This document shows, piece by piece, positions 21,407-56,975 of a stretch of 64,000 nt of DNA (positions within the stretch are counted from its first letter, which is position 1; the number at the start of each line of letters is the position of its first letter). Below the pieces are notes generated by a model. The model saw nothing but the letters and a program-made list of their open reading frames with translations. It was not told the DNA's origin and did not search any database. Made by a program: the position numbers and the translations under genes. Location of the stretch: assembly GCA_039200505.1 (NCBI GenBank), contig JBCCSJ010000002.1, forward strand, positions 2,462 through 66,461, in the 5' to 3' direction. This DNA comes from Planctomycetota bacterium (GTDB lineage Bacteria > Planctomycetota > Planctomycetia > Pirellulales > Pirellulaceae).

Positions 21407-21735
21407 TGCTGGTTCACGGAGCACTGATCGTGACTGCGGTATCGATCCTGATAACAATGACGTTGGCATTTGTCCGGGCTCGTTTGGGGCCAACGATTTT
21501 TGACCGCGTTTTGGCATTGAATATGTTTGGAACCAAAACGGTGTTATTGATTTGCGTAGTGGGCTTCTTGCCAGTTTTCGATCGTACCGACTTTTTGGAC
21601 CTCGCACTTCTTTATAGTTTGATGAACTTTATCGGAATGGTCGCCCTATTAAGATTTTCCGAGTACGGCAGCTTTCGAGTCGAAAACCGAACCCATGAAG
21701 GACATGGTAAAACCGGAATCGGGGGTGGGGCGTGA
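21406..21735 (+). CDS. mrpF: Mrp antiporter subunit F
   Basis: 109 aa, 3 TM, MnhF-type motif RARLGPTIFDRVLALN. Start abuts the mrpE stop. Confidence 0.75.
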   Translation: MLVHGALIVTAVSILITMTLAFVRARLGPTIFDRVLALNMFGTKTVLLICVVGFLPVFDRTDFLDLALLYSLMNFIGMVALLRFSEYGSFRVENRTHEGHGKTGIGGGA

Positions 21736-22076
21736 TCGTACTCGAGTTGATCGCTTGTTTGTTTGTTTTAACGGGCTCTTTTTTTTCAATTGTTGGTGGT
21801 ATCGGAATTGTTCGTCTGCCAGAGTTTTATTCTCGCCTGCATGGTGGCGGGATTACCGACACTCTTGGTGCGGGTTTGATTGTCATTGGTTTGATGATGC
21901 TGGGGCTGGCAAGGTGGGAACTGCTAACGTCAGCCAAACTGGCTATCATTCTGTTTTTCTTGTCGGTTACCAGTCCGGCGTCGTGTCATGCGTTAGCGAA
22001 ATCTGCATTGGTCCAAGGGCTGAAACCTGAACTTGAAATCAATACCCTCGATTCCAACAGGAAGTCGAAGGTGTAG
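21732..22076 (+). CDS. mrpG: Mrp antiporter subunit G
   Basis: 114 aa. MnhG signature GGIGIVRLPEFYSRLHGGGITDTLG. 4-nt overlap with mrpF. Confidence 0.8.
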   Translation: MIVLELIACLFVLTGSFFSIVGGIGIVRLPEFYSRLHGGGITDTLGAGLIVIGLMMLGLARWELLTSAKLAIILFFLSVTSPASCHALAKSALVQGLKPELEINTLDSNRKSKV

Positions 22077-22078
22077 GC

Positions 22079-22693
22079 ATGATCGATTTTATTGTGATCC
22101 CGATCCTGACGCTGCTTGCTTTAACCGCGTTGACGGTGGCCAGAATTAAAAACCTGTGGGCGGCTGTGATGTTCACAGGGATCTACAGTTTTCTTGGGGC
22201 CAGTTGGATGTTAATTCTTGACGCCCCAGATGTCGCATTCACCGAAGCTGCGGTGGGTGCCGGTGTGTCAACAATTTTGATGCTGGCGACGTTGGCGTTG
22301 ACTCCTCGTAAACGACATAAAGATGGGCATTTGGAGAGTGCTGATTTTGAAGAAAAACCACCCAAGCGATCTCCTTTTTGGGCCTTGAGTGTGGTTCTGA
22401 TTACTGGATGCGCTCTGGTTTATGGAACACTCGATATGCCTGCTTTTGGAGACCCAAACGCACCGATTCAAGTCTATCCGGATCCCTCTTTTGTCGAAAA
22501 ATCCCAGCCTGATATGCACGGTTTGCCCAACGTGGTGACTGCCGTCTTGGCAAGCTACCGAGGGTACGACACTCTAGGTGAAACCGCCGTCATTTTTACT
22601 GCAGGAATCGCAGTTTTGTTGATTTTGCGAAAATCGACTGCAGAAGACGAAGCGTTTATTTCGTCGATGAGCAAGGGGGAAAAGGGTGAATAA
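22079..22693 (+). CDS. MrpA C-terminal-like subunit (DUF4040/MbhD-like plus MnhB-like segment)
   Basis: LILDAPDVAFTEAAVGAGVSTILMLA matches the DUF4040/MbhD motif. The C-terminal VVTAVLASYRGYDTLGETAVIFTAG resembles the MnhB N-terminal motif. Confidence 0.7.
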   Translation: MIDFIVIPILTLLALTALTVARIKNLWAAVMFTGIYSFLGASWMLILDAPDVAFTEAAVGAGVSTILMLATLALTPRKRHKDGHLESADFEEKPPKRSPFWALSVVLITGCALVYGTLDMPAFGDPNAPIQVYPDPSFVEKSQPDMHGLPNVVTAVLASYRGYDTLGETAVIFTAGIAVLLILRKSTAEDEAFISSMSKGEKGE

Positions 22694-23156
22694 CTTTCCG
22701 ATCATTCGAGTGATCTCGAAAATCTTGATTCCCTACATTTTACTGTTCGCACTTTACGTTCAGTTTCATGGTGATTTTGGTCCCGGTGGTGGATTTCAGG
22801 CAGGTGTGATTTTTGCCGCCGCTTTGATTTTGTATGGCCTAGTGTTTGGGTTACCGAGCGTCTACGAAGTGGCTCCGCCTAAGGTGGTTGAAAAGCTGAT
22901 CGCCCTTGGGTTGGTGATTTATGCCGGTACGGGTGTCGCATGCATGGTATTGCAGGGTAATTTCCTGGATTACAACCAACTTAAACATAACACCTTGACG
23001 GATTTACCCGCCTACATCGGTGAAGGGACCTTTCATTTTCTTCCGTCTGACCAACACCTCGGAATCTTTCTGGTTGAACTGGGAGTTGGAATCACAGTCA
23101 CCGCTGTCATGACCATGATTTTTTATTCGTTCGCAGGACGCGAGGTGGTGGAATGA
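22686..23156 (+). CDS. mrpB: Mrp antiporter subunit B-like (MnhB/MbhE-like)
   Basis: 156 aa, 4 TM. HGDFGPGGGFQAGVIFAAALILY is the MnhB-family PGGGFQ motif. 8-nt overlap with the upstream gene. Confidence 0.75.
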   Translation: MNNFPIIRVISKILIPYILLFALYVQFHGDFGPGGGFQAGVIFAAALILYGLVFGLPSVYEVAPPKVVEKLIALGLVIYAGTGVACMVLQGNFLDYNQLKHNTLTDLPAYIGEGTFHFLPSDQHLGIFLVELGVGITVTAVMTMIFYSFAGREVVE

Positions 23157-23818
23157 GCTTGGATCAGGCTCTTGGGCTGTATAACTATTGGATTGTTATA
23201 TTCTTGATGATGACAGGGTTTTATATCGTCATCTCAAGTCAAAATTTAATCAAAACGATTATCGGGCTCAATATCTTTCAAACTTCCGTTTTTCTGTTGT
23301 ATATCACGATGGGGAAAGTTGCAGGCGGAACGGCTCCGATTATTCAAGGAGGGCATGGCGACCACGGGCACGGGCATGATCAATCTCACGATGCCAATCA
23401 TTCCCATCATGTCGTCGATCACGTTGATTCCGGTCAGCTACAAACAGGATCCGAATCTTTCGGCGAAAAAGCGAACGCGGAGTTGGGCATGGGCCATGAA
23501 CACGACCATTCGGCGACGATGCAAGAAGTTGCAGCGGGCCAAACCGCTGAAACGGGTGAACTGATTCAGGAAGCAGGTGAAGTTGTCGGATATGCCGACA
23601 ATGATGCGGCAGCGGTGGCAGGCGAATTGCTTCCGACTGGACCAGTGGAAACGATTGAAAAGATCTACTCCAACCCTCTTCCCAGTGTGTTGATGTTGAC
23701 GGCGATTGTGGTGGGAATTGCGACCACCGCCTTGGCTTTGGCTTTGATTGTCCGGATTCGAGAAGAGTACGGGACGATTGAAGAAGACGAAATTCTTGAG
23801 TTGGATAAAGCCGCGTGA
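23153..23818 (+). CDS. mrpC: Mrp antiporter subunit C (NuoK-like) carrying a ~100-aa His/Asp/Glu-rich insertion
   Basis: N-terminal two TM with NLIKTIIGLNIFQTSVFLLYI, and a C-terminal TM with NPLPSVLMLTAIVVGIATTALALAL. Together these are the NuoK/MnhC core, but they are split by residues ~66-170 (GGHGDHGHGHDQSHDANHSHHVVDH...GHEHDH...). Confidence 0.8.
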   Translation: MSLDQALGLYNYWIVIFLMMTGFYIVISSQNLIKTIIGLNIFQTSVFLLYITMGKVAGGTAPIIQGGHGDHGHGHDQSHDANHSHHVVDHVDSGQLQTGSESFGEKANAELGMGHEHDHSATMQEVAAGQTAETGELIQEAGEVVGYADNDAAAVAGELLPTGPVETIEKIYSNPLPSVLMLTAIVVGIATTALALALIVRIREEYGTIEEDEILELDKAA

Positions 23819-25314
23819 TTCAAGAACAATTGCCCATTCTATTGATTATTCTTCCGTTGCTGGCGGCGCCCCTGTTGGTGCTAATTGGCAATCGGAGACT
23901 CTGTTATCTGGTTTCATTGATTGTGGCGTGGCTGGTTTTTTTGATATCGAACGCTTTGCTGGTCGGCGTCATTCAAACGGGTCCAATTCGATACGAGATG
24001 GGTGGCTGGCCTTCTCCGTATGGCATTGAATATGTTGTCGACTATTTAAGTGCGTTTGTGATGCTATTCGTTTCTGGATTGGGTGCAATTGTGTTGACCT
24101 ATGCTCCAGCCAGTATTCAGCAAGAGATCCCACTTTCGAAACACTACCTGTTTTTTGCCACTTTCTTGCTATGCATGACGGGGCTGCTTGGTATGTGCAT
24201 CACGGGTGACCTGTTCAACGTTTTTGTTTTTCTTGAAATCAGTTCGCTAGCCAGTTACGCGCTGATCAGTCTGGGAAAAACTCGAAGGGCACCTTTGGCG
24301 GCGGTTCACTACTTGATTTTAGGGACGATCGGGGCGACATTTTTTCTGATCGGGATTGGGCTGCTTTATCAGATGACCGGGACGCTCAACATGGCCGACA
24401 TCGCGGCTCGGTTAGAACCCAACATCGGCAACCGAACGTCTTTGGTCGCATTTGCATTTATGACGGTCGGGCTATGCATCAAGATGGCGGTTTTTCCGCT
24501 GCACACCTGGCTTCCCAATGCCTACACCTACGCTCCTTCGGCGGTAACGAGCTTTATCGCAGCAACGGCAACCAAGGTATCGGTCTATGCGTTCATTCGA
24601 CTGGTCTTTCGGATTTTTTCACCTAGTTTCGCGTTTGAAACACTACCCCTGGATCAAGCTTTGATGATTTTCTCGTTGGTTGGGATCTTTGTGGCTTCGA
24701 CAGCGGCAGTTTTTCAATCCAACATCAAACGGTTGTTGGCTTTTTCGAGTGTGGCCCAAATCGGATATATGCTGTTGGGAATCAGCATGGCGAACGTCAA
24801 CGGTTTGTCGGCCGGAATTGCTCACATGTTCAATCATGCCTTGATTAAGGGAGGGTTGTTCATGGTCGTCGGTTGTTTTGCACTGCGGCTTGGATCTCTC
24901 AAGATTGAGGACATGAAGGGCGCGGGCAAGACGATGCCTTGGACTTCGTTTGCCTGGGTAGTAGGTGGGCTTGGATTGATCGGTGTTCCACTAACTGCCG
25001 GGTTTGTCAGTAAATGGTTATTGCTGACGGCGGCGATGGATAACAACTGGTTTCATGTCGCAGTTCTGATGTTGTTAAGTTCACTTTTGGCTGTGGTTTA
25101 CGTCTGGCGGGTCGTTGAGACGCTCTATTTTGAGGAACCTTCCGCGAAGGCGCGGATCGCGAAAGAGGCGCCTGTTTCGATGTTGATACCTACTTACATC
25201 GTCATCGGAGCAACATTGCTGTTTGGATGTTGGACCGTTTATTCAGCTGAACTGGCTCGGCTGGCGGCTGAGTCGTTGTTAATCGCTGCCGATTCGGGGG
25301 TGATGACACGATGA
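23815..25314 (+). CDS. mrpD: Mrp subunit D-like, NuoN/NuoM-type proton-conducting membrane subunit (1 of 3)
   Basis: 499 aa, ~14 TM, antiporter-like core (FPLHTWLPNAYTYAPSAVTSFIAATATKVSVY; AFSSVAQIGYMLLG; HMFNHALIKGGLFM). 4-nt overlap on both sides. Confidence 0.85.
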   Translation: MIQEQLPILLIILPLLAAPLLVLIGNRRLCYLVSLIVAWLVFLISNALLVGVIQTGPIRYEMGGWPSPYGIEYVVDYLSAFVMLFVSGLGAIVLTYAPASIQQEIPLSKHYLFFATFLLCMTGLLGMCITGDLFNVFVFLEISSLASYALISLGKTRRAPLAAVHYLILGTIGATFFLIGIGLLYQMTGTLNMADIAARLEPNIGNRTSLVAFAFMTVGLCIKMAVFPLHTWLPNAYTYAPSAVTSFIAATATKVSVYAFIRLVFRIFSPSFAFETLPLDQALMIFSLVGIFVASTAAVFQSNIKRLLAFSSVAQIGYMLLGISMANVNGLSAGIAHMFNHALIKGGLFMVVGCFALRLGSLKIEDMKGAGKTMPWTSFAWVVGGLGLIGVPLTAGFVSKWLLLTAAMDNNWFHVAVLMLLSSLLAVVYVWRVVETLYFEEPSAKARIAKEAPVSMLIPTYIVIGATLLFGCWTVYSAELARLAAESLLIAADSGVMTR

Positions 25315-26804
25315 CCCCTGAAATGATGATCTGGGTTTCTTTGTTGATGCCATTGGTGGCATTTGTGTTGGTTTGGCTGTTCGGAAATCAGCCCAACATT
25401 AGAGAAGCTTGCTCGATTGCGACATCCAATATTCTGTTTGGAATCACCTGTGTCCTGGCCAATCATGTTTTTGCCGGAAACCGACCGGAATGGAATCTGG
25501 GTACGATGATGCCTGGGTTTGATATTTCGTTTCAGGTGGAACCATTGGGGATGGTGTTTGCGTTGGTTGCGTCAGGTCTTTGGATTCTGACTACCATCTA
25601 CGCGATTGGCTATATGCGCGGTCACAATGAGACCAATCAGACTCGTTTTTTCAGCTGTTTTGCGGTTGCGATTTTTGCCGCGTTGAGTGCTGCCTATGCC
25701 AAGAATCTATTTACGTTGTTCGTCGCCTATGAAGTGATGACCATTTCGACTTATCCGTTAGTGACCCATCACGGAAATGAAAAAGCAAAACAGGGCGGCC
25801 GAGTCTATTTAGGCATCTTACTTTCAACATCGGTTGCGTTTTTTATGCTTGCCGTTGCCTGGACCTGGAATGTCGCTGGTACACTCGATTTCAAACCGGG
25901 AGGGATTCTGACCGCGGCTCAGCTATCTGGAAAAATTACCAATTTTCAACTTGCCGTTTTGTTGGGGTTGTTCGTTTACGGGATCGGCAAAGCGGCTTTG
26001 ATGCCATTTCACCGCTGGCTACCGGCTGCCATGGTTGCTCCAACGCCAGTCAGTGCCCTGTTGCACGCAGTGGCCGTCGTCAAGGTTGGCGTTTTTTCGG
26101 TGCTGAAAGTGGTAGTCTATATTTTCGGAATTGACCTGATTCAATTGACCCAAGTCGGTGAATTGGGGCAATACGGGATGAGCAGTTGGCTCTGCTATAT
26201 CGCCGGGGCGACGATTTTGCTCGCTTCGTTGGTAGCAATGACCAAAGACAATTTAAAAGCTCGGCTTGCCTATTCGACGATCAGTCAACTCGCCTATATC
26301 ACCTTGGCTGCTGGGCTTGCAACACCCGATAGCGTGATCGGTGGCGGGATGCACATCGTGATGCACGCCGTCGGTAAAATCACTTTGTTTTTTTGTGCGG
26401 GGGCGATCTATGTCGGAGCACACAAAACGGATATCAGTGACATGCGAGGGCTGGGCCGGGCGATGCCTTTGACGTTTGGTGCCTTTTTCATCGCCAGTTT
26501 GAGCATCATTGGAGTCCCGCCGTGCGGGGGATCGTGGAGCAAATGGTTTTTGGCGATCGCCACCGTGGATGAGGGACATTTGTGGCTGACTGCAACGTTG
26601 ATGATCAGTTCCTTGCTGAACATCGCCTACCTGATTCCCATTTCTGTTCGAGCTTTTATGACGCCAGCAAGGATGGAACCGATGAAATTTAAAGAAGCAC
26701 CCATGATGTGCGTCGTTCCGTTATGCATCACGGCAGTGGGTAGTGTTGCCTTGTTCTTTTTCGCCGAAGGCATCTGGAGTGCACTTCTGCCTATCGTTCA
26801 GTAA
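25311..26804 (+). CDS. Mrp subunit D-like, NuoM/NuoN-type membrane subunit (2 of 3)
   Basis: 497 aa. Motifs MPFHRWLPAAMVAPTPVSALLHAVAVVKVGVF, AYSTISQLAYITL, HAVGKITLFFCAG. Confidence 0.85.
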   Translation: MTPEMMIWVSLLMPLVAFVLVWLFGNQPNIREACSIATSNILFGITCVLANHVFAGNRPEWNLGTMMPGFDISFQVEPLGMVFALVASGLWILTTIYAIGYMRGHNETNQTRFFSCFAVAIFAALSAAYAKNLFTLFVAYEVMTISTYPLVTHHGNEKAKQGGRVYLGILLSTSVAFFMLAVAWTWNVAGTLDFKPGGILTAAQLSGKITNFQLAVLLGLFVYGIGKAALMPFHRWLPAAMVAPTPVSALLHAVAVVKVGVFSVLKVVVYIFGIDLIQLTQVGELGQYGMSSWLCYIAGATILLASLVAMTKDNLKARLAYSTISQLAYITLAAGLATPDSVIGGGMHIVMHAVGKITLFFCAGAIYVGAHKTDISDMRGLGRAMPLTFGAFFIASLSIIGVPPCGGSWSKWFLAIATVDEGHLWLTATLMISSLLNIAYLIPISVRAFMTPARMEPMKFKEAPMMCVVPLCITAVGSVALFFFAEGIWSALLPIVQ

Positions 26805-26821
26805 TTTTAATTGTCCGAGTC

Positions 26822-27115
26822 ATGGATCCGCAGCAAACCAAAAAAGAAGCGACAGAACTAAGCTGGGCTGAACGAAATGTCAAATGGATCGGCACCGGTC
26901 TGATCGTCGCATGCGTTCTGACGGTCGTGGTTCAGTTGTTATGCGGTCCCGTTCTGCCAGCGATGTTTGACGAAAAACATAAAGCTCATTTTGAAGTCGA
27001 AAACTTTCCAGGGTTTCAGGCGATCTTTGGATTTGCTGCTTTTGTCATCATTGTCTACCTCGGGAAATTGCTGCGATTGTTCGTGATGAGGGAGGAAAAC
27101 TATTATGATTCCTAG
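26822..27115 (+). CDS. small 2-TM membrane protein embedded in the mrp operon (unknown subunit)
   Basis: 97-aa ORF, two hydrophobic helices. It starts 18 nt after the previous stop, and its 3' end overlaps the next gene by 11 nt. Confidence 0.55.
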   Translation: MDPQQTKKEATELSWAERNVKWIGTGLIVACVLTVVVQLLCGPVLPAMFDEKHKAHFEVENFPGFQAIFGFAAFVIIVYLGKLLRLFVMREENYYDS

Positions 27116-28826
27116 TCTTCCTCCCGGCGTCTTGATGATGTTTGGGGCGATACTGCTCCCGTTGTTGGGCAAAAAGTTTAGCGCGATCGGGGCCTTGGTG
27201 CTTTCGTCGATCAGCCTGATCCTGTTCTGGACACTGCCGGCGGATCATGTGATCCCAATGTCATTTTTTGGGCAGGAGTTGATCCTGGCCAGGATCGACA
27301 AATTGAGCTGGATTTTCTGCTTGGTGTTTCACTTGGCAGCAATCATGGCATCCGTTTACGCTTTGCACGTCAAAGATACCAAACAACACGTTGCGGCGAT
27401 GCTCTATGCGGGCAGCTCAATTATGGCTTCGTGTGCGGGCGACATGATTACCCTGTTTGTTTGCTGGGAATTAACGGCGGTTTCCAGCGTATTCCTGATC
27501 TGGGCTAGCAATTCGGAAAAAGCTTATCGGTCCGGTATGCGATACCTGATCATTCAAGTGATTTCCGGGGTGCTGTTACTTTCAGGAGCGATCATTCGTT
27601 TTCGGTCGACCGGTGATCTTGGATTCCATTCATTCATCGATGGGGATCCGTCATCCTTTTTTACACTCAGTTTGGGATCGAAACTGATTCTGATTGCCTT
27701 TGGAATTAAGGCAGCATTTCCGTTGCTTCATAATTGGCTTCAAGACGCGTATCCAAAATCAACGCCAACAGGGACAGTTTTCTTAAGTGCATTTACAACC
27801 AAGTTGGCAATCTATTCTCTCGCCCGAGGCTTTGCGGGATTGGAGGAATTAGTCTGGATCGGTTGTGCGATGACACTGTTCCCGATCGTTTTCGCAGTAA
27901 TCGAGAATGATCTTCGCAGAGTGCTGGCCTATAGCCTGAATAACCAGCTTGGATTTATGGTGGTCGGAATCGGGATCGGATCGGACTTGGCAATTAACGG
28001 GACGGCGGCTCACGCTTTTTGCCATATTATCTACAAGGCATTGTTGTTCATGTCGATGGGAGCGGTTTTAAAGCAGGTCGGTACGACGAAGGCCACGGAG
28101 CTAGGCGGACTTCATAAAACAATGCCGTGGACAACCTTGTTTTGCATAATCGGGGCAGGCGCGATTTCCGGTTTTCCACTGTTAAGTGGTTTTATTAGCA
28201 AATCGATGATCATTTCGGCCGCCGCTTATGAACATAGGTTTGTCGTCTGGTTTATTCTGTTGATTGCGTCGGCAGGAGTGATGGAACACTCTGGAATCAA
28301 GATTCCTTTCTTTGCCTTCTTTGCTCACGATTCCGGGAAACGTCCTAAAGAAGCGCCGCTGAATATGTTGATTGCGATGGGAATGGGAGCTTTCTTGTGT
28401 GTGGGCCTGGGGGTCGCCTATCCTTTGCTGTACAAGAACCTGCCCTACGAACTTCACCACGAATACGTCCCCTACACGCTTGCTCATGTTGTGATGCAGT
28501 TGCAACTGTTGCTGTTCGCAGGTCTGGCATTCCTGTTTCTGATGAAGATGGGATTGTATCCCGAAGAGAAAAGATCGACTAATCTCGATTTTGATTGGGT
28601 TTACCGGAAATTGTTTCCCAACGCGATAAGCCAAATTGGTCGCGGAATCCGGTGGATGGATCAAACGTTAAGAGCCTGCGTCTTATGGTTGTTAACGTGG
28701 TTTGTGCGGATCTGCGAAAAGAATTTCAATGAAACTGGAAATCTTGGCACGACTTGGTCCACCAGCCTGATGGCATTTTGGGCAGCGATCCTGTTAGGTC
28801 TTTGCCTGATGCTCTACTATCTTTGA
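27105..28826 (+). CDS. MrpA N-terminal-like / NuoL-type membrane subunit (3 of 3)
   Basis: 573 aa. Antiporter core (FPLLHNWLQDAYPKSTPTGTVFLSAFTTKLAIY; AYSLNNQLGFMVVG; HAFCHIIYKALLFMSMG) plus extra C-terminal helices. Confidence 0.8.
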   Translation: MIPSLPPGVLMMFGAILLPLLGKKFSAIGALVLSSISLILFWTLPADHVIPMSFFGQELILARIDKLSWIFCLVFHLAAIMASVYALHVKDTKQHVAAMLYAGSSIMASCAGDMITLFVCWELTAVSSVFLIWASNSEKAYRSGMRYLIIQVISGVLLLSGAIIRFRSTGDLGFHSFIDGDPSSFFTLSLGSKLILIAFGIKAAFPLLHNWLQDAYPKSTPTGTVFLSAFTTKLAIYSLARGFAGLEELVWIGCAMTLFPIVFAVIENDLRRVLAYSLNNQLGFMVVGIGIGSDLAINGTAAHAFCHIIYKALLFMSMGAVLKQVGTTKATELGGLHKTMPWTTLFCIIGAGAISGFPLLSGFISKSMIISAAAYEHRFVVWFILLIASAGVMEHSGIKIPFFAFFAHDSGKRPKEAPLNMLIAMGMGAFLCVGLGVAYPLLYKNLPYELHHEYVPYTLAHVVMQLQLLLFAGLAFLFLMKMGLYPEEKRSTNLDFDWVYRKLFPNAISQIGRGIRWMDQTLRACVLWLLTWFVRICEKNFNETGNLGTTWSTSLMAFWAAILLGLCLMLYYL

Positions 28827-30270: not shown

Positions 30271-31794
30271 TTGGAATTATTCTTTTTCGAATACAAACAG
30301 ATCGAGGCTTCTACTTGGGCGTATTTATCGTCTCTGCTATTGATTGCATTGTTCTTTAAATTCAACCGATTCTGGAGCGTTCGCAATCTTGATCTTCTAT
30401 TGATCATCTTATTGGCTCCGGGGCTGTTACTGATCGATAGCGGACAAGCTTTCGTCCAGCAGCAAAAGGGGCAGACTCGGTCGCAGGCAGAAGGGATCGA
30501 GGACGTAACTCAGACGGCAGTTGGTATTTTGCCAAAGGTTTCTCAGTTTGAAAATTTGGATGACCGAAGTACGGGCAATCCGTCATCGTTTTCTGAACCG
30601 GGCAGCCTTACTCGTCAGCAAATTGCTGGTCAAAAGTTGCAACGATTTGGTTACTACTGGCTTTTTAGTGCCGGGATTTTTTTGCTGATTAGGATGCTGA
30701 TTGATCCTGCTTTGACCAGACGTCCCATGTTGGAACCCAATCTGACCGTCGGGGGGTTAGTCTTTCTTGGTGTCAGTTTGATGTCTTTTTTGATGGCAAA
30801 TATCGCTACTTCGCAACCAACTCCTGATGATCTTCAGGGAGCCAAAGACGCGGTTAAATTGATCAAGCGTGAGCAGGCAAGCTCTAACGACATGGAAAAA
30901 CTTAAAAGACGCGGCCCTGGTTATCGCCTTTTCAATCTGCTACCGATTATCCCGTCTTTTGAGAGTGGTGACGAAATCTTGAGAACCAACGTGGAACAAG
31001 AATCGGATTCACTAGGCAGGTACGTGATCGCTGCTAGATCGTTGGCCATCGTGAGCCAATTGTTGATCGTTTTTGGGTTGGTTTTATTCTGCCATTATTA
31101 CTACGAAAATTTTTATGTTGGGGTTGGGATCGGAACGATTTACTTATTGCTGCCCTACACCGCACTTTATACCGGACACGTTTCGCACGCGCTTCCAGCG
31201 GCCCTGTTGGTTTGGTCATTGTTTTTTTTCCGAACGCCAGTTGCTGCGGGAGTATTGATGGGACTGGCAACGGGAGTTTCTTATTATCCAGTATTTTTGA
31301 TTCCTCTTTGGGCCAGTTTTTACTGGGACCGCGGTGTCAAACGGTTTAGTGTCAGTTTTCTTGTCTCTATTTTGCTATGCGTGGGAGGGCTGGCATTTAC
31401 GTCAGTCGACGTTGCCGATTTTATGCAGCAGGTGCGTGCGATGTTTGGATTTTGGCAGCCGCTGCTTGAAGGCCTTGACGGTGTTTGGGCATTAGGATGG
31501 AGTCAATGGTGGAGGCTTCCGATCTTGGTGACTTTTGTTTTGTTCAGTATCTCGTTCGTTTTCTGGCCTACGGAAAAAAATATTGGAACTTTGGTAGCCT
31601 ATACCGGAGCCGTGATGATTGCCGTTCAGTTCTGGCATGGTTTCGGTGGAGGTTTGTATGTGGCGTGGTATATGCCCATGGTTTTGTTAACATTTTTCCG
31701 ACCAAATCTGCTTGGGCGGGTTGCGACTCAGGAATTACGGGAACAGAACCGCAAGCGGAAAGAAACCGCTGAGGATATTCTGGTTCAGGATTAG
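30271..31794 (+). CDS. polytopic integral membrane protein (unknown function, ~12 TM)
   Basis: 507-aa ORF (TTG start in the track; true start uncertain). Many hydrophobic helices with one ~100-aa and one ~80-aa hydrophilic loop. No motif I can name. Confidence 0.55.
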   Translation: MELFFFEYKQIEASTWAYLSSLLLIALFFKFNRFWSVRNLDLLLIILLAPGLLLIDSGQAFVQQQKGQTRSQAEGIEDVTQTAVGILPKVSQFENLDDRSTGNPSSFSEPGSLTRQQIAGQKLQRFGYYWLFSAGIFLLIRMLIDPALTRRPMLEPNLTVGGLVFLGVSLMSFLMANIATSQPTPDDLQGAKDAVKLIKREQASSNDMEKLKRRGPGYRLFNLLPIIPSFESGDEILRTNVEQESDSLGRYVIAARSLAIVSQLLIVFGLVLFCHYYYENFYVGVGIGTIYLLLPYTALYTGHVSHALPAALLVWSLFFFRTPVAAGVLMGLATGVSYYPVFLIPLWASFYWDRGVKRFSVSFLVSILLCVGGLAFTSVDVADFMQQVRAMFGFWQPLLEGLDGVWALGWSQWWRLPILVTFVLFSISFVFWPTEKNIGTLVAYTGAVMIAVQFWHGFGGGLYVAWYMPMVLLTFFRPNLLGRVATQELREQNRKRKETAEDILVQD

Positions 31795-32135: not shown

Positions 32136-33365
32136 ATGGAATCGAAGCAACGATTTACCAGAACTTTGTTACTAGCAACGATTATTGTTGGCGGTATTTG
32201 GGTTTTGCTCAATAAAGATCAAATTCAAAATCCCGCTGACTTGATAGAAGTTGCCGTCAGTCAGATCGGTTCGACTTCTCAACACGTAGTCACCGCGATC
32301 CAGGGTAATGGGCGGGTTGGATCGGGGACAGGCAACGGATTGGGGCCCAGTGGTGAGATGGGTGAGATGGGGGCAGGCAACGCGATCAGGCCAAACCGCC
32401 GAGTAAGTTCAGCAACCATCGATCAGGCCGGGTTCAAGACTAATATTGGTCAGCAATATGTCACAAACGTTATCAGAATCGCCTCTTTTAATGTGCAACC
32501 AAATGCCATTTCTCAAAGTCCATTCTCGCAAAATCTGACCGCAGAGATTTGCCGCGGTTTCGATGCGATTGCGTTGCAGAATATTTCGACGAGCGATTCA
32601 GCCTGGCTGCCAAACTTGGTTGCTAGGATGAATGAATTGGAAACTATGGGTGCACAGCGACCAGGCCAAAAGGCAACCAAGAACATTCCGAATTACCGAT
32701 TCGTTTCAGATCAGGCTTACAACAATTCCAAAGATACGATTGCTGCGATCATCTACAATCAAACGACTTTGGAAATGGATGAAAGCCGGTGGTATACCGT
32801 TGCTGACCCAGAAGGCATCCTTAACCGCAGCCCGATTGTGGGCTGGTTCCGTACGCGTGGGCCTGACTCGAGTCGAGCATTCACTTTTAGCTTGGTGAAT
32901 CTGTCGCTTCATCCATCCCGACCCGAACAGGAATTGGCTCATCTGGGAGATCTTTTTCGGGCGATCCGCAATGACGGCCGGGGCGAAGATGACGTTTTGA
33001 TTGTCGGCGATTTTAATACGGGCGACCGAGGTTTGAAAACAGTCAGTCAACGACACGGTTTGACATGGGTAGTTTCGAACCGTTCCACGACGACACGTAA
33101 TCAAGCTCAATCTGACAATTTAGTATTCAGCCAAATTGCGACCGAAGAATTCACAGGGAGCGGAGGTGTTTTTGATTTTCTGAGGCATTACAACCTTCGC
33201 CTCGTCGATGCTTTAATGGTGTCAGAGCATCTTCCTGTGTGGGCAGAGTTCTCTATTTTCGAGGGCAAAGCAGCCAGTCGCTTGGTACCGGTTCGACGAA
33301 AGGCTCGTTCTGAGAATTCCGAACCAAAACAGGTCCAGGTTCCAGAGACCAGTTTCGTCCATTAA
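32136..33365 (+). CDS. membrane-anchored endonuclease/exonuclease/phosphatase (EEP, DNase I-like) family protein
   Basis: N-terminal TM (TLLLATIIVGGIWVLL) and a Gly-rich linker. EEP motifs IRIASFNVQ, DAIALQNI, VLIVGDFN and a C-terminal SEHLPVWAEF (catalytic His). Confidence 0.7.
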   Translation: MESKQRFTRTLLLATIIVGGIWVLLNKDQIQNPADLIEVAVSQIGSTSQHVVTAIQGNGRVGSGTGNGLGPSGEMGEMGAGNAIRPNRRVSSATIDQAGFKTNIGQQYVTNVIRIASFNVQPNAISQSPFSQNLTAEICRGFDAIALQNISTSDSAWLPNLVARMNELETMGAQRPGQKATKNIPNYRFVSDQAYNNSKDTIAAIIYNQTTLEMDESRWYTVADPEGILNRSPIVGWFRTRGPDSSRAFTFSLVNLSLHPSRPEQELAHLGDLFRAIRNDGRGEDDVLIVGDFNTGDRGLKTVSQRHGLTWVVSNRSTTTRNQAQSDNLVFSQIATEEFTGSGGVFDFLRHYNLRLVDALMVSEHLPVWAEFSIFEGKAASRLVPVRRKARSENSEPKQVQVPETSFVH

Positions 33366-33465: not shown

Positions 33466-34200
33466 TTATGTGCAAAGTTGGCTTCTTAGTTCGGCTTCGT
33501 CAATATGGTTGGAAAACCAGCAAGACAAATTTTCTTGTCCCACTCGAAGGCTGCTTTTCATTCGTTGTAGCGAACCGACACCGATGCACCGGAGTGGAGC
33601 GGGTTGAACGTCATCGGACAAGCCATTTGAGTCTTTGGCAATCACGATGTCAGGTTGGTTTTGCTGTTGCAGAAAATCTATCAATTTTCTCCCCGAATCG
33701 ATTGAAATGATTCGGTACCCCTGTGCAGCAAGCTTGGCAATGATTCGACTTTCGGGTTCAAACTCCAACATGAGAGCCGTTTTTGATTGAACACGATATC
33801 TGGATGGCGCTTCACAGACCACCGATTCTTGGGCGGCACCAACGTCGGGCATCTGGCAGAATTTTTCCAAGTCGTCGAGACACTCCAACGCATTTTGAAG
33901 GGCATCTTCAGCATGTCCGTTCAATTGTTGCCGCAGCTGGTTTTGGGCAAGATGGATCGCCAAGTTTGCCGCATCGATTCGTTTTTGAATTTCGATTTGA
34001 TGCTGAGCAGAAATTCCCGGTTTTTCGGGTCGACTCATTGGATCTACCTTGCCAAGCAACTCGCCTCTTAGAATACGGATGTCTTCGGGAGCGTCGATTC
34101 CGATTCGGGCTGAATTCTTTCCGATTTCGACGACCTCCAGAGTGATTCCAAGACCTGGAAACAGGATTTCTTCACCGACACGACGAGATAAAACAAGCAT
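33466..34200 (-). CDS. CsrA/RsmA-domain protein with a ~190-aa C-terminal extension
   Basis: ATG at 34200 gives MLVLSRRVGEEILFPGLGITLEVVEIGKNSARIGIDAPEDIRILRGELL, a near position-for-position match to the CsrA consensus. The same frame continues for 244 aa in total: a helical linker, then an alpha/beta region. Confidence 0.8.
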   Translation of the reverse strand: MLVLSRRVGEEILFPGLGITLEVVEIGKNSARIGIDAPEDIRILRGELLGKVDPMSRPEKPGISAQHQIEIQKRIDAANLAIHLAQNQLRQQLNGHAEDALQNALECLDDLEKFCQMPDVGAAQESVVCEAPSRYRVQSKTALMLEFEPESRIIAKLAAQGYRIISIDSGRKLIDFLQQQNQPDIVIAKDSNGLSDDVQPAPLRCIGVGSLQRMKSSLRVGQENLSCWFSNHIDEAELRSQLCT

Positions 34201-34355
34201 TTCAAGACTCCTTTCAAGAGTTTTCGATTGCCCCAAGATAGGCAATTCGGATTTCACAAACTGATCTTTGGGCATCCAAGCCCCCGTCAATGAAATCTTT
34301 TCCAGCTAACGACCTTAGACAGTCTCTCGATCAACGATGATCTGTCAACCCTGTT

Positions 34356-34497: not shown

Positions 34498-37356
34498 ATG
34501 GAGAAGACTGGGCAAAGAACGCGTCGGATCGTGGAAGAGTTGCGTGCAGATATTGATTTTGAGCTAGATGATGTTATCTCAAAAATCGTTGGGAGTTTAC
34601 CCGAAGACTACTTCACGAATCTTTCTCGTGAAAATCAGTTGACCCAGCTAAAAGCTTTGTTGGCGATGGGAATTTGTCAACTCGATCACGAGATCATGCT
34701 CCGAAGCGAGGATGGTCGCCACGTTAGTGTGATCGCTCGTCAAAATTATCCTGGTTTGTTGGCTGGAATTTTAAGGCGTTTGCCACGGGAACGTTCTTTA
34801 ATCGGAGCCAAGATTTTCACTTCCACCGAACACGATTTCATTATTGATGTTTTTGAGTTTGAGACTGAAGAAGTGGTTACCGGTACTGAAACGATCGCCG
34901 ATCAAGAGTTGCAGGCTTCGATCGAAAAAGTCAGCCAGTTAACAGGGGCCCAGGAAACCAAAATTCGAGAGTTCGTTAGCCACTACCGAACGAACAGTCC
35001 GATATTGCGAACACCAAAGCTAATTTCCGAACACTATTTGGCATTTAATGCTATGCGGCATTCCAACGACATAGCGATTCGTTGGAGTGATTTGGATGGG
35101 GGCAGAATGCATGTCACAGTTTCCACTGGAAGCACCCGTCCACGTGAAATTTTCGAGCGAGCTTCCACATTTTTTGCCGGCAAGTCGATCGACATCGACC
35201 AAGCGTTTTTGCATGACATTCCAAGAAACGAGTATTCCCGATCGGCGATTGCGAGTTTCATCGTCGTTGGTGAAGTCAACAATCAGGCTTTTCGTCCGGA
35301 ATTGGTCGAGGAACTCAAACTCTTCCTTCGATTGGACGAAGACATCCTTTCGAAATATGGATTTGCAGATCATTTTGATTCTCGCGAAAATGCCGAACTG
35401 GTTTCGGCCGTCGCCCGTTTGGTCGGACACTTGATGAAGTTTGCCGGGTCCAATGTGCCGTTTCAACAGGTGAATGGACTCGCTCGAAAGCACATTCATG
35501 CATTCGAAAAGTGTATCGATGCCATCAAGTCGATTGGATCTGGAAAGTCATTCGATAGAACCAAGGATCTGGTCTCGCTGGAATATCTGAACAATCCAGT
35601 TGAAAGAAAAGTCCTTTCCACACTCAATTCGATCATTCGGTCGTTGACGGCATCTAACATATCGGTGGCGGATCGACGGACCATTACGATGCGTTTTGAC
35701 CAGCAATTATTCGACGAATTCGATGTTAACGAAAAACCGTTTGCTGTTTACTACTGTTTGGGGCAAGGTTTCGATGGATTTCATGTGCGTTTCCGCGATG
35801 TGGCTCGGGGCGGGATGCGTTTGGTTAGGACTCGCAACGATGAACATTATCTTGTGGAATCCGTTCGAGTGCTCGAAGAAGCTTACCGTCTGGCCGCAGC
35901 TCAACAGCTAAAGAACAAAGATATCGCTGAGGGTGGTGCCAAGGCTACTATTATCCTCAAACCGGAGATTGATCCTGAAAGAGCCGGACGGGATTTTGTC
36001 GACGGACTTATGGACGTTGTTTTGTTGGATTCTATTGAAGGTGCTTCCGAAGAATTGTTGTATCTAGGGCCAGACGAAAATGTAACGCCACGCCTGATCG
36101 AGTGGATTGTCAAACGGAGTCGCATGCGTGGTTATCCTTATCCCGAATCTCTGATCAGTTCCAAACCGAAGGCTGGTATCAACCATAAAGAATTCGGAGT
36201 CACCAGCGAGGGTGTAACCGTATTTTTAAAGCGAGCACTAAAGTATGCGGGTATCGATCCAGCTCAGTCGCCATTTTCAGTCAAATTGACGGGTGGCCCA
36301 GATGGCGATGTTGCAGGGAACGAAATTAAGATTTTGTTTCGAGAGTATGGTCAATCTGTCAAAGTTGTGGGGGTTGCGGATGGAATGGGTTCAGCGATTG
36401 ATCCCGTCGGTTTGAATCAGATGGAACTGCTACGGCTGTGTCATGAAGAACGACCCATTTGCGATTTTGATTCGTCCAAGCTTTCGGCCGAAGGGAAAGT
36501 GTTGGGGCTCAATACGCCGGACGGACTGGCTCAACGAAACGACCTTCAATTCTCACTCAAATCCGATGTGTTCATTCCAGCCGGCGGCAGGCCATCAACG
36601 ATCAATGAAAGCAATTGGGAATCCTTCTTCGCTTCCGACGGTAGCCCAGCGGCCAGAATTGTAGTCGAAGGAGCCAATCTGTTTATTGACGATTTGGCTC
36701 GTCGTCGACTTTCAGATCGAGGAGTAATCGTCGTTAAAGATAGTTCGGCCAACAAGTGCGGAGTGATCTGCAGCAGCCTTGAAATCGTAGCCGGAATGCT
36801 GCTAACTGAGGAAGAATTTCTTGAAATCAAAGATGAATTTGTCGCCGATGTTTTGGAGTTATTACGGGAATTGGCAGAAATTGAGGCCAATTGTTTGTTT
36901 AACGAATTGCCTCGGGCTCCTTCGTCGTCACTGCCTGAATTGAGCGTGATGATCAGCCAAAAAATTCTGCAAATAGGTGATCTCATTTTTGCAGAGATTG
37001 ACCACTGGTCCAGTGCCGATCAGGATCGAGCGCGTTCCCTGACGCTTCGGTATTTGCCCGATGCTCTGATCGATAAATTAGGAACCGAATTGATTGATGA
37101 TATTCCAAGGGTCTATCGAAACCAGTTGGTTGCTTCGATTTTGGCAAGCCGCGTTGTTTATCGAGAAGGTTATCAAAATCTTGAAAATATGCAGCCATCG
37201 GATTTGGGTCGTTTGGCATTGGATTACTTGAGACTTGATAGTGAGACGATTCGGCTGATCGATGAAATCGATTCCGCTGGTATCCGAGAGGCAAGATCTA
37301 TTCGCGAAATTTTAAGACATTCAGGTACCCGGGCCTTAAGAGAGTTAGGTCATTAG
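34498..37356 (+). CDS. large NAD-specific glutamate dehydrogenase (~105 kDa class)
   Basis: 952 aa. The central GDH catalytic core has RFRDVARGGMRLV, AQQLKNKDIAEGGAKATII (catalytic Lys/GGxK), GPDENVT, and the Rossmann motif LTGGPDGDVAGNE. Long N- and C-terminal helical extensions are typical of large GDHs. Confidence 0.8.
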   Translation: MEKTGQRTRRIVEELRADIDFELDDVISKIVGSLPEDYFTNLSRENQLTQLKALLAMGICQLDHEIMLRSEDGRHVSVIARQNYPGLLAGILRRLPRERSLIGAKIFTSTEHDFIIDVFEFETEEVVTGTETIADQELQASIEKVSQLTGAQETKIREFVSHYRTNSPILRTPKLISEHYLAFNAMRHSNDIAIRWSDLDGGRMHVTVSTGSTRPREIFERASTFFAGKSIDIDQAFLHDIPRNEYSRSAIASFIVVGEVNNQAFRPELVEELKLFLRLDEDILSKYGFADHFDSRENAELVSAVARLVGHLMKFAGSNVPFQQVNGLARKHIHAFEKCIDAIKSIGSGKSFDRTKDLVSLEYLNNPVERKVLSTLNSIIRSLTASNISVADRRTITMRFDQQLFDEFDVNEKPFAVYYCLGQGFDGFHVRFRDVARGGMRLVRTRNDEHYLVESVRVLEEAYRLAAAQQLKNKDIAEGGAKATIILKPEIDPERAGRDFVDGLMDVVLLDSIEGASEELLYLGPDENVTPRLIEWIVKRSRMRGYPYPESLISSKPKAGINHKEFGVTSEGVTVFLKRALKYAGIDPAQSPFSVKLTGGPDGDVAGNEIKILFREYGQSVKVVGVADGMGSAIDPVGLNQMELLRLCHEERPICDFDSSKLSAEGKVLGLNTPDGLAQRNDLQFSLKSDVFIPAGGRPSTINESNWESFFASDGSPAARIVVEGANLFIDDLARRRLSDRGVIVVKDSSANKCGVICSSLEIVAGMLLTEEEFLEIKDEFVADVLELLRELAEIEANCLFNELPRAPSSSLPELSVMISQKILQIGDLIFAEIDHWSSADQDRARSLTLRYLPDALIDKLGTELIDDIPRVYRNQLVASILASRVVYREGYQNLENMQPSDLGRLALDYLRLDSETIRLIDEIDSAGIREARSIREILRHSGTRALRELGH

Positions 37357-45772: not shown

Positions 45773-47734
45773 TTACGATTGGTGGTTGCGGGCAAGAGTG
45801 AGACCGGCAGCGTTGGCCTGTTCACTAGGACGCTTTTCAACCGCATTGGCTGCGTCAGAGGAGTTCGCTGGGCCGGTGTTGGCCTGTCTTCTTTCGATGA
45901 ATTTCTCGCGAATGTCTTCACGAATTTCAAGATATCGCATGTTGACTTCGAGTTTGACACCGTCGCTTAACTCGTTAAAAGTGGTCACGAAAATCTGGTT
46001 TTGAAAGGCTTCGCCTTGAAATAGAGACGCTCGAATTCGGTTCGAAAGACGATTTCTTGCACGGATAAAAAAGGAGTTCACCGTTCCCCACTCGGTCGGC
46101 GGTTGCATTGGGTTTCCAAAGGAGTCAAACAGGCTAAACAGTAGATAACCTTTTTCTCCAGTGTTGCGTTCAAATCGGGCCTCGATATAAGCCCAATCAG
46201 ATTCATCCGGCTGAGAATCGAGTATCTGAGAAGGTTGGATAACTTTCCTTTCGACCAATTTCCATCCAACGTTTTTGTAACACGTGGTCAATTCATGCCA
46301 ACCTGGGAACGGTTGGTCTACCGAAAAGTGGGTGGAAACAGACGGTGATTGGAATCTCCACGTGTCGGATCTTTGTCCCAAGTCGCTTCCTCGGGTTCGA
46401 TCGGTAGTTTCATGGTCGAGCCGTTCCCAGTCTTCGTAAGTTTTTGCCAAGTCTTCACGAACGAAATCGACGGTCGGGTCCGAGTCAAAAAATCGGACCA
46501 GCATTTTTTGTTCGGCGTTCAGCGAAGCTCTTACATCCGATAGTTGCCAAAGCCCCATGGCAGTCATCAAAATTCCTATCGCCCAGATTACCGCCAGACC
46601 TGCCTTGGAAGGATTCTGCGAACGTCTTCGATGACCTGGCGATTCCGAATCGGAAGACTCCCCTGCAAGAACGGAGTTCCAAAATCGGTTGACCATCCGA
46701 ACCATCGCGCTGCTGCCCTGCGTGGCTCCTGAATCCACGGGACCAAAAAGGAAGAATATAAATTGGTCAGTGCTGAATAAAAGTAAAATCCCCAGCGTCA
46801 AAACGACATAACCCAGGATGTCGTGGGAAATGCCGTGTGATAGATCAATCTTCAAAATATATTCGGACAACGGGATGACCATGATTCGTATGGTATTCAT
46901 GAATATCGCCCAAAAAACGGCTGACATGATCAACAGGGCAGCTCGAAACCCTACGAATGCATAAAAAATTAAACCGATCATCAGCCCAAATAAAAGTTGA
47001 TTGACCGCCCCGGGGGGTATGACAAAAGCATGCAAAATATAACAAACCATCGCCATCAATAAGCCGACGAACCACCCCAGAATGCCCGGCATTTGGATAC
47101 GGCGGCTCATGACAATGAAGACTACCGCGACCAGCAACAACGTAAAAAACGATTGCACACCGCTGCATGCCTGTTCGATACCGTATTCTTGAACACCGGG
47201 AACCTTGATCAGGGTACCATCCATATGGTGTCCCAGCCCCAGCAGGTCCAACATGCGACTCGTGTAAACCGCACTGTACTGTTGAAGTCGAGTGATAAGG
47301 GTAAAGTCCAGTTGATTGGGAAGAATCAGATAGACATACAAAGGCAACGAACAAGGCCACAAAGTTCCTTCGGCATCTTTGTCGTTTGTGGAAGCCAAAA
47401 GGCTGCTGATCAGCAACATAAAGCTGAGGGCCGAAAACCAGGGCTCTACAAAAAGTAGGCTGAAAAATGCCGAAGCCAATCCCAAAAACAAGAGGAAAAA
47501 ACTGGTGACTGACTGTCGAAATGCAGGCTGGATTTCAAAAGGCCATCTCAGCATCGCTAGTCCTGCCGTGGCCACGATTGCAAACCCAAACGGCTGATAA
47601 TGAGGTCTGTCCAAAAGGCCTCGAAAATAGAGCAGCAACATTGGCAACTGAGCCAAGACTGCCAGTCCATAGGGAAGCAAGATTTTCCAGGGAACAATCT
47701 CGTTGGCAGCGGGTTGGGGTTTCGATGATGCCAT
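45773..47734 (-). CDS. exosortase fused to a C-terminal EpsI-like domain
   Basis: Polytopic N-terminal half with the exosortase Cys-Arg-His signature in order: IEQACSGVQSFFTLLLVAV, FMNTIRIMVIP, SHDILGYVV. Then a TM (LAVIWAIGILMTAMGLW) and a ~260-aa soluble domain of EpsI-like size and position. Confidence 0.8.
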   Translation of the reverse strand: MASSKPQPAANEIVPWKILLPYGLAVLAQLPMLLLYFRGLLDRPHYQPFGFAIVATAGLAMLRWPFEIQPAFRQSVTSFFLLFLGLASAFFSLLFVEPWFSALSFMLLISSLLASTNDKDAEGTLWPCSLPLYVYLILPNQLDFTLITRLQQYSAVYTSRMLDLLGLGHHMDGTLIKVPGVQEYGIEQACSGVQSFFTLLLVAVVFIVMSRRIQMPGILGWFVGLLMAMVCYILHAFVIPPGAVNQLLFGLMIGLIFYAFVGFRAALLIMSAVFWAIFMNTIRIMVIPLSEYILKIDLSHGISHDILGYVVLTLGILLLFSTDQFIFFLFGPVDSGATQGSSAMVRMVNRFWNSVLAGESSDSESPGHRRRSQNPSKAGLAVIWAIGILMTAMGLWQLSDVRASLNAEQKMLVRFFDSDPTVDFVREDLAKTYEDWERLDHETTDRTRGSDLGQRSDTWRFQSPSVSTHFSVDQPFPGWHELTTCYKNVGWKLVERKVIQPSQILDSQPDESDWAYIEARFERNTGEKGYLLFSLFDSFGNPMQPPTEWGTVNSFFIRARNRLSNRIRASLFQGEAFQNQIFVTTFNELSDGVKLEVNMRYLEIREDIREKFIERRQANTGPANSSDAANAVEKRPSEQANAAGLTLARNHQS

Positions 47735-47781
47735 GGATTCGAGAGGGGAATAGAACGAAGTTGATTTAGGTGATCGTATCG

Positions 47782-48768: not shown

Positions 48769-48881
48769 CGTATTCTTTCAAAAGAAATGGGTCAGGGCTG
48801 GCGAACTCCAACCGCCATCTCGGTTTTAGTTCAACCATTTGTTTTTTTCTAGCGGCTGTGGAAACGCAACTCAGTTCAATC

Positions 48882-50222: not shown

Positions 50223-50281
50223 GGTATTCGTTTTTAGGACAGAAAGGTGAGAAAGATGAAATATTTTGGGAGGCTTCTATC

Positions 50282-53331: not shown

Positions 53332-53352
53332 GGAATAAAAAGGTGTGAAGGG

Positions 53353-56970: not shown

Positions 56971-56975
56971 GCTAT

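Follow-up and report, generated by a model that had tools for sequence, protein, structure and literature searches.

The subject of this analysis is a gene in a 64,000-nucleotide stretch of DNA from a Planctomycetota bacterium of the family Pirellulaceae (GenBank assembly GCA_039200505.1, contig JBCCSJ010000002.1, positions 2,462 to 66,461 of the forward strand), the whole of which we call the window. The gene encodes a 244-aa protein composed of an N-terminal CsrA RNA-binding domain, a two-helix hairpin, a linker, and a C-terminal domain derived from the receiver of response regulators (hereafter the C-domain; Table 1). The profile comparisons, the conservation patterns, and the gene neighbourhoods of the relatives led us to regard the protein as, probably, a phosphorylation-independent CsrA paralogue descended from a response regulator having CsrA as its output domain.

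The C-domain carries the principal evidence for this descent. The window protein belongs to a branch of relatives that have degenerate receiver sites (the degenerate branch), and a profile of the C-domain from this branch was compared with the receiver of the relatives having intact sites (the canonical branch). HHalign gave a probability of 99.2% and an E-value of 1.9e-19 over 117 columns. A further profile, constructed from 11 sequences of the degenerate branch without any canonical member, found solved receivers for nearly all of its top matches in PDB, with E-values from 5e-6 to 2e-3 (3gt7, 5e-6; DivK, 7e-5; and 3a0r_B, at positions 7–106). The Pfam receiver model PF00072, on the other hand, did not match the window protein even at E ≤ 10, and it matched 11 of 26 relatives. 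In the window protein, the catalytic columns of the receiver are occupied by E145, F146, and E147 in the acidic pocket (F146 and E147 correspond to D12 and D13), K189 in place of D57, G209 in place of T87, and N231 in place of K109. The D57, T87, and K109 columns were unconserved across the clade of the window protein (tabulated for 69 and 116 members). We therefore assign the C-domain firmly, at the level of sequence profiles, as a receiver homologue in which the phospho-acceptor Asp, Thr/Ser, and Lys residues are all missing. The preliminary description of this DNA, which was made from the letters alone, had proposed a receiver-like region of ~110 aa with non-canonical residues at the acidic pocket and lysine positions, that is, a pseudo-receiver at best. 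The substitutions listed above agree with the latter proposal; as for the former, the derivation from a receiver is upheld by the profiles, but a CheY-like fold was not recovered.

Structure prediction indicated that the domain is reduced. AlphaFold2 (AF2) was run on the window protein with a 69-sequence alignment, and the resulting model has the topology β1-α1-β2-α2-β3, a variable loop of low confidence, β4-β5, and α5; α3 and α4 are absent. The loop replacing α3 ranges from 0 to ~45 residues in length. Only the β1-α1-β2-α2-β3 half of the receiver is clearly retained, helices α3 and α4 have probably been lost, and, at the level of prediction, the domain falls short of the (βα)5 flavodoxin-like fold. 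Four residues, W228, G161, P183, and L157, are invariant or near-invariant in both branches.

The hairpin preceding the C-domain is the best-conserved part of the extension. Its helices (residues 65–90 and 94–116) were predicted with a predicted local distance difference test (pLDDT) score of 93–96, in line with the helical segment that the preliminary description had placed after CsrA. The label "coiled linker" attached to it there turned out to be inappropriate: the 17 consecutive residues of the LDAANLAIHLAQNQLRQ block are near-invariant in the degenerate branch, the proteins of which are only ~35–45% identical overall, and the hairpin is kept by relatives of ~150 aa that have no C-domain. 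In alignment A3, A77 and N79–Q88 are invariant, and the conserved polar residues of the helices are N79, H83, Q86, N87, Q88, R90, and Q91. The conservation of the hairpin is 0.66 in the degenerate branch versus 0.44 in the canonical branch, and the profiles of the two branches matched each other with an HHalign probability of 96.7%. The column in which the canonical branch has a conserved His is occupied by I67 in the window protein. HHalign comparison of the degenerate-branch hairpin with real dimerization and histidine phosphotransfer (DHp) domains of histidine kinases gave only 0.15%, with no similarity to the H-box. On the basis of this value and the absence of the His, the possibility that the hairpin is a DHp or histidine phosphotransfer (HPt) domain was rejected for this branch.

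The linker between the hairpin and the C-domain (residues 117–138; 33787–33852) is predicted by AF2 to be disordered at residues 120–135, where the pLDDT is below 50. It contains the motif V-x-E-x4-Y, in which E130 and Y135 are invariant and V128 is near-invariant (alignment A3). The ~150-aa relatives without the C-domain share this motif; the canonical-receiver branch lacks it. The occurrence of such a motif in a disordered linker suggests that it may be a docking peptide for some partner.

A word-indexed search yielded 82 relatives, and the family amounts to about 116 unique sequences. In the canonical class (about 42 of the 116), E-D-D/N, D57, S/T87, and K109-P are intact, and matches to PF00072 are obtained. 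The degenerate class, to which the window protein belongs, has about 59 sequences; about 59 of the 116 members have neither the receiver Asp and Lys nor the His of the hairpin. The members of a short class (136–192 aa) possess CsrA and the conserved hairpin, mostly together with V-x-E-x4-Y, and no receiver-derived domain. When residues 60–244 were submitted to an exhaustive HMMER search against 1.84 billion representatives, 65 proteins of 107–358 aa were found. An N-terminal CsrA domain was present in 38 of the 39 matches newly found by this search, and the exception (107 aa) resembles a fragment; the module of the hairpin and the C-domain thus appears to be confined to CsrA fusions. When one genome per species was scanned, long-form loci were detected only in Planctomycetota (Pirellulaceae, Mariniblastus, Thermoguttaceae, Bythopirellula, and metagenome-assembled genomes (MAGs) labelled "Planctomycetaceae"), and every member with an organism name was derived from this phylum.

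The canonical branch provided insight into what the degenerate branch has lost. The canonical hairpin carries a conserved H-x-L-R-N-x-L-N motif, and its His is found in 38 of the 42 sequences that have both Asp57 and Lys109, versus about 2 of the 69 degenerate members with the C-domain. When the canonical hairpin was compared with the DHp domains of the kinases encoded by neighbouring genes, HHalign aligned this His with the phospho-His of HELRNPL in the H-box (81%, E = 1.2e-5); the reversed control gave 0.2%. Sub-threshold matches to the Pfam HisKA model were observed in 2 of 15 canonical members. A search of PDB with the canonical hairpin profile returned only generic matches of the tetratricopeptide-repeat-like "G-x-x-x-E-A" type, inflated by the repeats. 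We regard the DHp-like reading of the canonical-branch hairpin as a lead.

The canonical genes are also linked to kinase genes. All eight of the canonical-gene neighbours tested encode hybrid histidine kinases with the arrangement PAS-HisKA-HATPase_c-REC (REC, receiver), and N-terminal CheB-CheR modules are present in two of the eight. A kinase gene was adjacent at 11 of 23 canonical loci and within the flank at 14 of 23, versus none of the 15 degenerate and none of the 6 short-class loci; at the 15 loci of the query clade (that of the window protein), no kinase gene was found within 8 kb. The difference in adjacency (11/23 canonical loci versus 0/21 degenerate and short-class loci) corresponds to a Fisher p-value of 2.2e-4, calculated from counts that may not be independent of one another. 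Two large kinases of 1283–1492 aa, each with CheB methylesterase, CheR methyltransferase, PAS, HisKA, HATPase_c, and receiver domains in one chain, were observed beside canonical CsrA-receiver genes at L013:8026-12504 and L026:8794-12645, both on the minus strand. At two other loci, canonical CsrA-hairpin-receiver paralogues occur in pairs a few kilobases apart (L037:6652-7470 and 7992-8774; L048:1442-2206 and 7875-8771); the hairpin His is missing from one member of each pair, the residue being Q in L037_6652 and N in L048_1442.

At the other end of the protein, the CsrA domain, which the preliminary description had recognised at residues 1 to ~55, was confirmed with the Pfam model PF02599, which matched residues 1–52 with an E-value of 5.2e-15 and 55.6 bits (cutoff, 27). 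These residues align with solved CsrA, RsmA, and RsmE chains (E ~ 2e-5), and Foldseek superposed the AF2 monomer model on CsrA chains with a probability of 1.00 and template modelling (TM) scores of 0.65–0.70 (target-normalised). In E. coli CsrA, we take the residues critical for RNA binding to be L2, L4, R6, R7, V40, V42, and R44. At these positions the window protein has L2, L4, R6, R7, I41, I43, and R45 (equivalent to E. coli R44), and it also has a RIGIDAP core and E47. The columns invariant in the family are M1, L2, R6, P15, G34, A37, P38, R45, and E47. As judged from the sequence, the domain is shown to be intact and to possess the residues with which CsrA binds GGA motifs in mRNA leaders. 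The equivalog cutoffs of NCBIfam for csrA (TIGR00202 / NF002469) were not reached (47.4 versus 70.1 bits and 42 versus 73 bits), indicating that the protein is a member of the CsrA family rather than the orthologous "carbon storage regulator". The MAG containing L001, a close homologue, encodes an ordinary 70-aa CsrA (L074) as well; within the window, tblastn found no second CsrA. Since the related MAG has both the fusion and an ordinary CsrA, the fusion protein is probably a specialised paralogue and not the only CsrA of the cell. It is thus probably not the global translational regulator itself, contrary to what had been supposed at the outset.

The reading frame of the gene, predicted beforehand as 244 continuous codons, was confirmed and lies on the minus strand: it starts with ATG at 34200, ends with TAA at 33466–33468, and is uninterrupted. 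An identical protein is contained in P0001, a deposited NCBI model of 269 aa from a Planctomycetota MAG. Two alternative starts exist upstream, TTG at 34290 (274 aa) and ATG at 34275 (269 aa, equal to the P0001 model). All of the ~116 unique relatives begin with MLVLSRR or a near variant. Because of this common N-terminus and a conserved Shine-Dalgarno sequence, the ATG at 34200 is probably the true start, and the 269- and 274-aa models are probably over-extended. In the region 34201–34290 of the window (minus strand), the deposited P0001 start lies 25 codons upstream of MLVLSRR and was probably mis-called.

Upstream regions were compared among the window and the loci L001–L012, L047, L013, L018, L023, L026, and L017. 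GAAAGGA(G/A) was found 6–9 nt before the MLVLSRR start in 18 of the 24 sampled loci, often as GGAAAGGA, which has two GGA cores. GAAAGGA was present at a matching distance in 13 of 13 query-clade loci, 4 of 8 canonical loci, and 1 of 3 short-class loci; the proteins themselves share only ~35–45% identity. The GAAAGGAG sequence over the gene's own ribosome-binding site may be a candidate site for autoregulation by CsrA. Simple scans of the flanks detected neither a σ70-like promoter nor a terminator; a single terminator-like site was found inside the coding sequence, at chance level. A search with Rfam over the whole window gave no matches.

Table 1. Coordinates of the CsrA fusion gene and its parts in the window, with the short-class members of the family
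Feature	Position or members	Strand	Evidence or remark
CsrA-hairpin-pseudo-receiver coding sequence, 244 codons + TAA	33466..34200	minus	Open reading frame (ORF) translation; >60 full-length homologues
Shine-Dalgarno / GGA-containing motif GAAAGGAG	34208..34215	minus	7 nt upstream of ATG
CsrA RNA-binding domain, residues 1-52	34045..34200	minus	Pfam PF02599, PDB alignments, Foldseek
Two-helix hairpin, residues 65-116, block LDAANLAIHLAQNQLRQ	33853..34008	minus	AF2, alignment, HHalign
V128-x-E130-x4-Y135 linear motif	33796..33819	minus	Alignment; inside linker
Aspartate-less, reduced receiver-derived domain, residues 139-244	33469..33786	minus	HHalign, degenerate-only profile, AF2
Short-class members	L011, L016, L017, L019, L027, L032; P0050-P0066		No adjacent kinase

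From these results, the following mechanism can be proposed. The ancestor would have been a CsrA protein under the control of phosphorylation. In the lineage leading to the window protein, the linkage to a kinase would have disappeared together with the His, Asp, and Lys residues, rendering the protein independent of phosphorylation. The usual intertwined CsrA dimer would form and bind GGA-type sites, plausibly including its own GAAAGGAG; RNA binding of this type seems quite likely to us. On dimerisation, the two hairpins would meet and form a four-helix bundle, for which we see roughly an even chance. The bundle and the pseudo-receiver would together constitute a built-in platform, and it is highly probable that such a platform would need no phosphorylation. 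The platform might determine how accessible the two RNA-binding faces are or how far apart they lie, most likely by binding a protein or ligand in trans, which would resemble the control of AmiR by AmiC or the antagonism of ordinary CsrA by FliW and CesT; we put forward this last step tentatively. A fuller version includes the canonical branch, in which a hybrid kinase would pass the phosphoryl group to the H-box His of the hairpin and from there to the fused receiver, switching RNA binding in a His-Asp-His-Asp relay; the window protein would then be a phosphorylation-independent derivative gated by docking of a partner or ligand on the conserved helix and V-x-E-x4-Y. We consider this complete scheme rather doubtful.

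Several observations weigh against the proposal. The predicted TM score of the AF2 model is only 0.44, and the model does not fix the mutual placement of CsrA, the hairpin, and the C-domain; the second half of the C-domain was modelled with low confidence. When the full-length model and a model of the C-domain alone were searched against PDB with Foldseek, no CheY-like match was obtained (best E = 0.075, with subdomains of the PBP/LysR type). Apart from CsrA, only these non-significant matches were returned; confirmation of the receiver at the level of fold was therefore dropped, and the assignment rests on the profile evidence. An Asp, D190, is located one residue past the D57 column. Because the branches are clades, the three residues (His, Asp, and Lys) and the kinase linkage may have been lost in one event in one clade. 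In the canonical branch, the resemblance between the hairpin and the DHp/H-box region spans 19 columns, and profile searches of PDB and Pfam did not support it. No candidate partner is encoded near the gene in the window: among its neighbours, conservation is seen only for a convergent 409-aa gene, and there only in close relatives.

Other explanations of the unusual protein were compared with the one proposed here. Its length, four times that of an ordinary CsrA, could in principle be an artefact in which an overlooked frameshift or stop has merged a 60-aa csrA with an independent gene behind it, and the unusual length is indeed the sole point in favour. Conserved homologues of the extension, the lack of which the preliminary description had named as counter-evidence, are in fact plentiful: since more than 60 collinear, full-length homologues come from independent assemblies of several sources, the fusion is not an assembly artefact. 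Moreover, the exhaustive search never found residues 60–244 free-standing (the sole match without CsrA is the 107-aa fragment of the C-domain), and purifying selection acts in frame on each of the three parts. The sequence data thus effectively refute an artefact. Another explanation treats the extension as inert baggage left over from evolution, with the protein working just as an ordinary CsrA dimer does. For the C-domain, conservation is 0.43 in the degenerate branch and a higher 0.59 in the canonical branch, some lineages have dropped the domain, and the loop in place of α3 varies greatly in length, all of which would fit a decaying relic. However, the pairwise ratios of nonsynonymous to synonymous substitution rates (dN/dS) between close relatives were 0.02–0.10 for CsrA, 0.06–0.18 for the hairpin, and 0.10–0.16 for the C-domain (one pair with low counts gave 0.33), and these low values indicate purifying selection on all three parts. 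The decaying-relic interpretation of the C-domain is contradicted by its dN/dS and is retained here as a rival. The near-invariance of the hairpin block at such low overall identity and the constancy of W228, G161, P183, and L157 across both branches also argue against inert baggage, and, since related genomes already own a plain CsrA, a redundant copy is unlikely to last across dozens of lineages. We consider this explanation improbable.

It is also conceivable that the protein is a working response regulator, in which D190 is phosphorylated by an unlinked kinase (e.g., that encoded at 13297–14667) and thereby switches CsrA. D190 directly follows the predicted β3 (residues 185–189), the usual site of the acceptor Asp; acidic residues (E145 and E147) are present in the pocket region; and the HisKA-HATPase_c kinase ~19 kb away looks like an orphan. 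Within the clade, however, K189 and D190 are both unconserved, the column being occupied by T, E, L, M, Q, A, and similar residues. The counterparts of T87 and K109 are Gly and Asn, α3 is missing, PF00072 is not matched, and kinase genes are absent from the vicinity of all 15 clade loci, so that we judge phosphorylation at D190 to be very unlikely. The remaining alternative is a constitutive scaffold for oligomerisation, in which the hairpins would bundle CsrA dimers into tetramers or larger assemblies and alter the valency or the targets without any input signal. The hairpin is predicted with great confidence and is conserved on all faces, the ~150-aa class has kept it despite lacking the C-domain, and no partner gene is linked, all of which can be explained by a scaffold. 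Yet the conserved polar residues of the helices are more numerous than helix packing usually requires, and V-x-E-x4-Y in the disordered linker points to docking; we regard a pure scaffold as unlikely, though deserving consideration. Descent from a CsrA-output response regulator, with loss of the phosphorylation site, is the interpretation that we prefer.

The neighbourhood of the gene in the window was also inspected. The convergent 409-aa gene (32136–33365, plus strand) has weak similarity to the EEP family (PF03372, E = 1.5e-3), below the cutoff, and the divergent neighbour (34498–37356, plus strand) encodes a 952-aa NAD-dependent glutamate dehydrogenase (GDH). The orientations convergent with an EEP gene and divergent from a GDH gene, as given in the preliminary description, are therefore correct, but the EEP assignment is sub-threshold. 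The GDH is of the Bac_GDH type, and only models of the catalytic domain match it; members of this family are typically ~1600 aa long. Upstream of the 409-aa gene are a gene for a 507-aa multi-pass membrane protein with no Pfam family (30271–31794, plus strand) and an Mrp/MBH-like antiporter operon (20792–28826, plus strand) containing MnhE, MbhD/E, a NuoK-like subunit, and three Proton_antipo_M proteins. The 409-aa gene, the 507-aa protein, and the Mrp operon recur beside the fusion gene only in the closest ~10 loci. A conserved operon partner was rejected as a candidate on account of this limited recurrence, and we judge the conservation of the neighbours to be clade synteny, not functional linkage. 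No FliW or flagellar families were detected among the 30 ORFs scanned in the window, as had been noted before, and no fliW is located beside the short CsrA gene L074.

The nearest kinase gene in the window (13297–14667, minus strand, ~19 kb off) encodes the HisKA-HATPase_c protein mentioned above. Near it lies a gene (15659–16561, plus strand) encoding a fusion of a receiver and an RsbW-like HATPase_c_2 serine-kinase/anti-sigma domain, and the two may form a partner-switching module under two-component control. A large exosortase (EpsH)/exopolysaccharide cluster occupies 45773–63986 on the minus strand; it contains UDP-sugar epimerases and a dehydrogenase, glycosyltransferases, a heparinase II/III-like protein, asparagine synthase, a Wzy-like ligase, and a flippase.

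CsrA is among the best-studied global post-transcriptional regulators. To our knowledge, every established mode of its control acts in trans, through sponge small RNAs (sRNAs), FliW, or CesT. A CsrA covalently wired to two-component parts would place translation directly under a phosphorelay, with no intermediate transcription factor or sRNA. If the fuller scheme is true, control built into the protein itself would join sRNA sponges and the trans-acting FliW and CesT as a third mode of CsrA regulation, represented by this Planctomycete family, and the canonical branch would have a complete relay that terminates at a translational regulator within one polypeptide. The phospho-competent proteins with kinases, the phospho-dead proteins, and the hairpin-only proteins constitute a natural comparison set that could reveal the role of each added part. 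The C-domain also adds a case of a very degenerate pseudo-receiver that is missed by standard domain models. As for annotation, the label "carbon storage regulator" on Planctomycete proteins of 250–290 aa hides a receiver-derived domain.

In comparison with known systems, the N-terminal part resembles canonical CsrA, RsmA, and RsmE: residues 1–52 exceed the Pfam cutoff, and the GxxxRIGIxAP core, the RNA-contact residues, and the predicted strand fold are shared. Unlike the canonical homodimers of ~55–75-aa chains, the protein is four times longer, has a family-specific F14-P15 insertion, and carries the hairpin and the receiver-derived domain in place of a short tail. The closest systems are the CsrA-output response regulators of the same phylum, which share the order CsrA-hairpin-receiver and homology over the full length (24–31% identity). 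These keep E-D-D/N, D57, S/T87, K109-P, and the H-box-like His, and often have a hybrid kinase, whereas the window protein has lost all of these. Two canonical members, Gimesia aquarii P0071 and Rhodopirellula sp. SWK7 P0074, are annotated as "response regulator" (NCBI/UniRef). The architecture is thus already known: as cited in PMC2222644, the 2006 census of Galperin includes CsrA as an RNA-binding output domain that response regulators rarely carry. With this listing and the annotated relatives, the combination is not unprecedented, contrary to what the preliminary description had implied. In the literature searched, we found no functional, structural, or experimental study of CsrA-receiver fusions, and the phospho-dead branch, the conserved hairpin with a His only in the phospho-competent branch, the linkage to hybrid kinases, and the hairpin-only class appear to be undescribed there.

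Pseudo-receivers, or aspartate-less receiver (ALR) domains, are computationally recognisable receivers without the phospho-acceptor Asp (Maule et al. 2015, PMC4395418; reviewed in PMC12632262). The C-domain agrees with this definition in being a receiver homologue without the acceptor Asp or the catalytic residues, presumably regulated or acting independently of phosphorylation. It differs from the usual pseudo-receivers in that it is more degenerate, escapes PF00072, apparently lacks α3 and α4, and is joined to CsrA, a combination not mentioned in the 2025 review (PMC12632262).

The hairpin of the canonical branch and the DHp/HisKA hairpins share the geometry of a two-helix hairpin on an obligate dimer and the alignment of H-x-L-R-N-x-L on HELRNPL; the hairpin of the degenerate branch differs from them in having no His and in its negligible profile similarity. 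Spo0B and ChpT are phosphotransferases with DHp-type helical hairpins. In AmiR, a pseudo-receiver and a coiled coil are combined with the RNA-binding ANTAR output domain under the control of AmiC. The window protein would be similar to AmiR by analogy, as a dimeric RNA-binding regulator with a non-phosphorylatable receiver, a helical segment, and control by a partner. On the other hand, ANTAR is unrelated to CsrA, the order of the domains is reversed, AmiR acts by antitermination and not by occlusion of the ribosome-binding site, and no AmiC-like partner has been identified for the window protein. AmiR-type ANTAR proteins are listed among the RNA-binding response regulators (PMC12471899).

Control of CsrA through protein contact, rather than through sponge sRNAs, is exemplified by FliW of Bacillus and Campylobacter and by CesT of enteropathogenic E. 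coli. The solved CsrA antagonist complexes 5dmb and 5z38 were among the matches obtained. That Planctomycetes may use FliW on CsrA has been put forward by inference only (Zere et al. 2015, PMC4682653). FliW and CesT are trans-acting and show no sequence relationship, whereas the candidate control module of the window protein is covalently attached to the CsrA domain that it may regulate.

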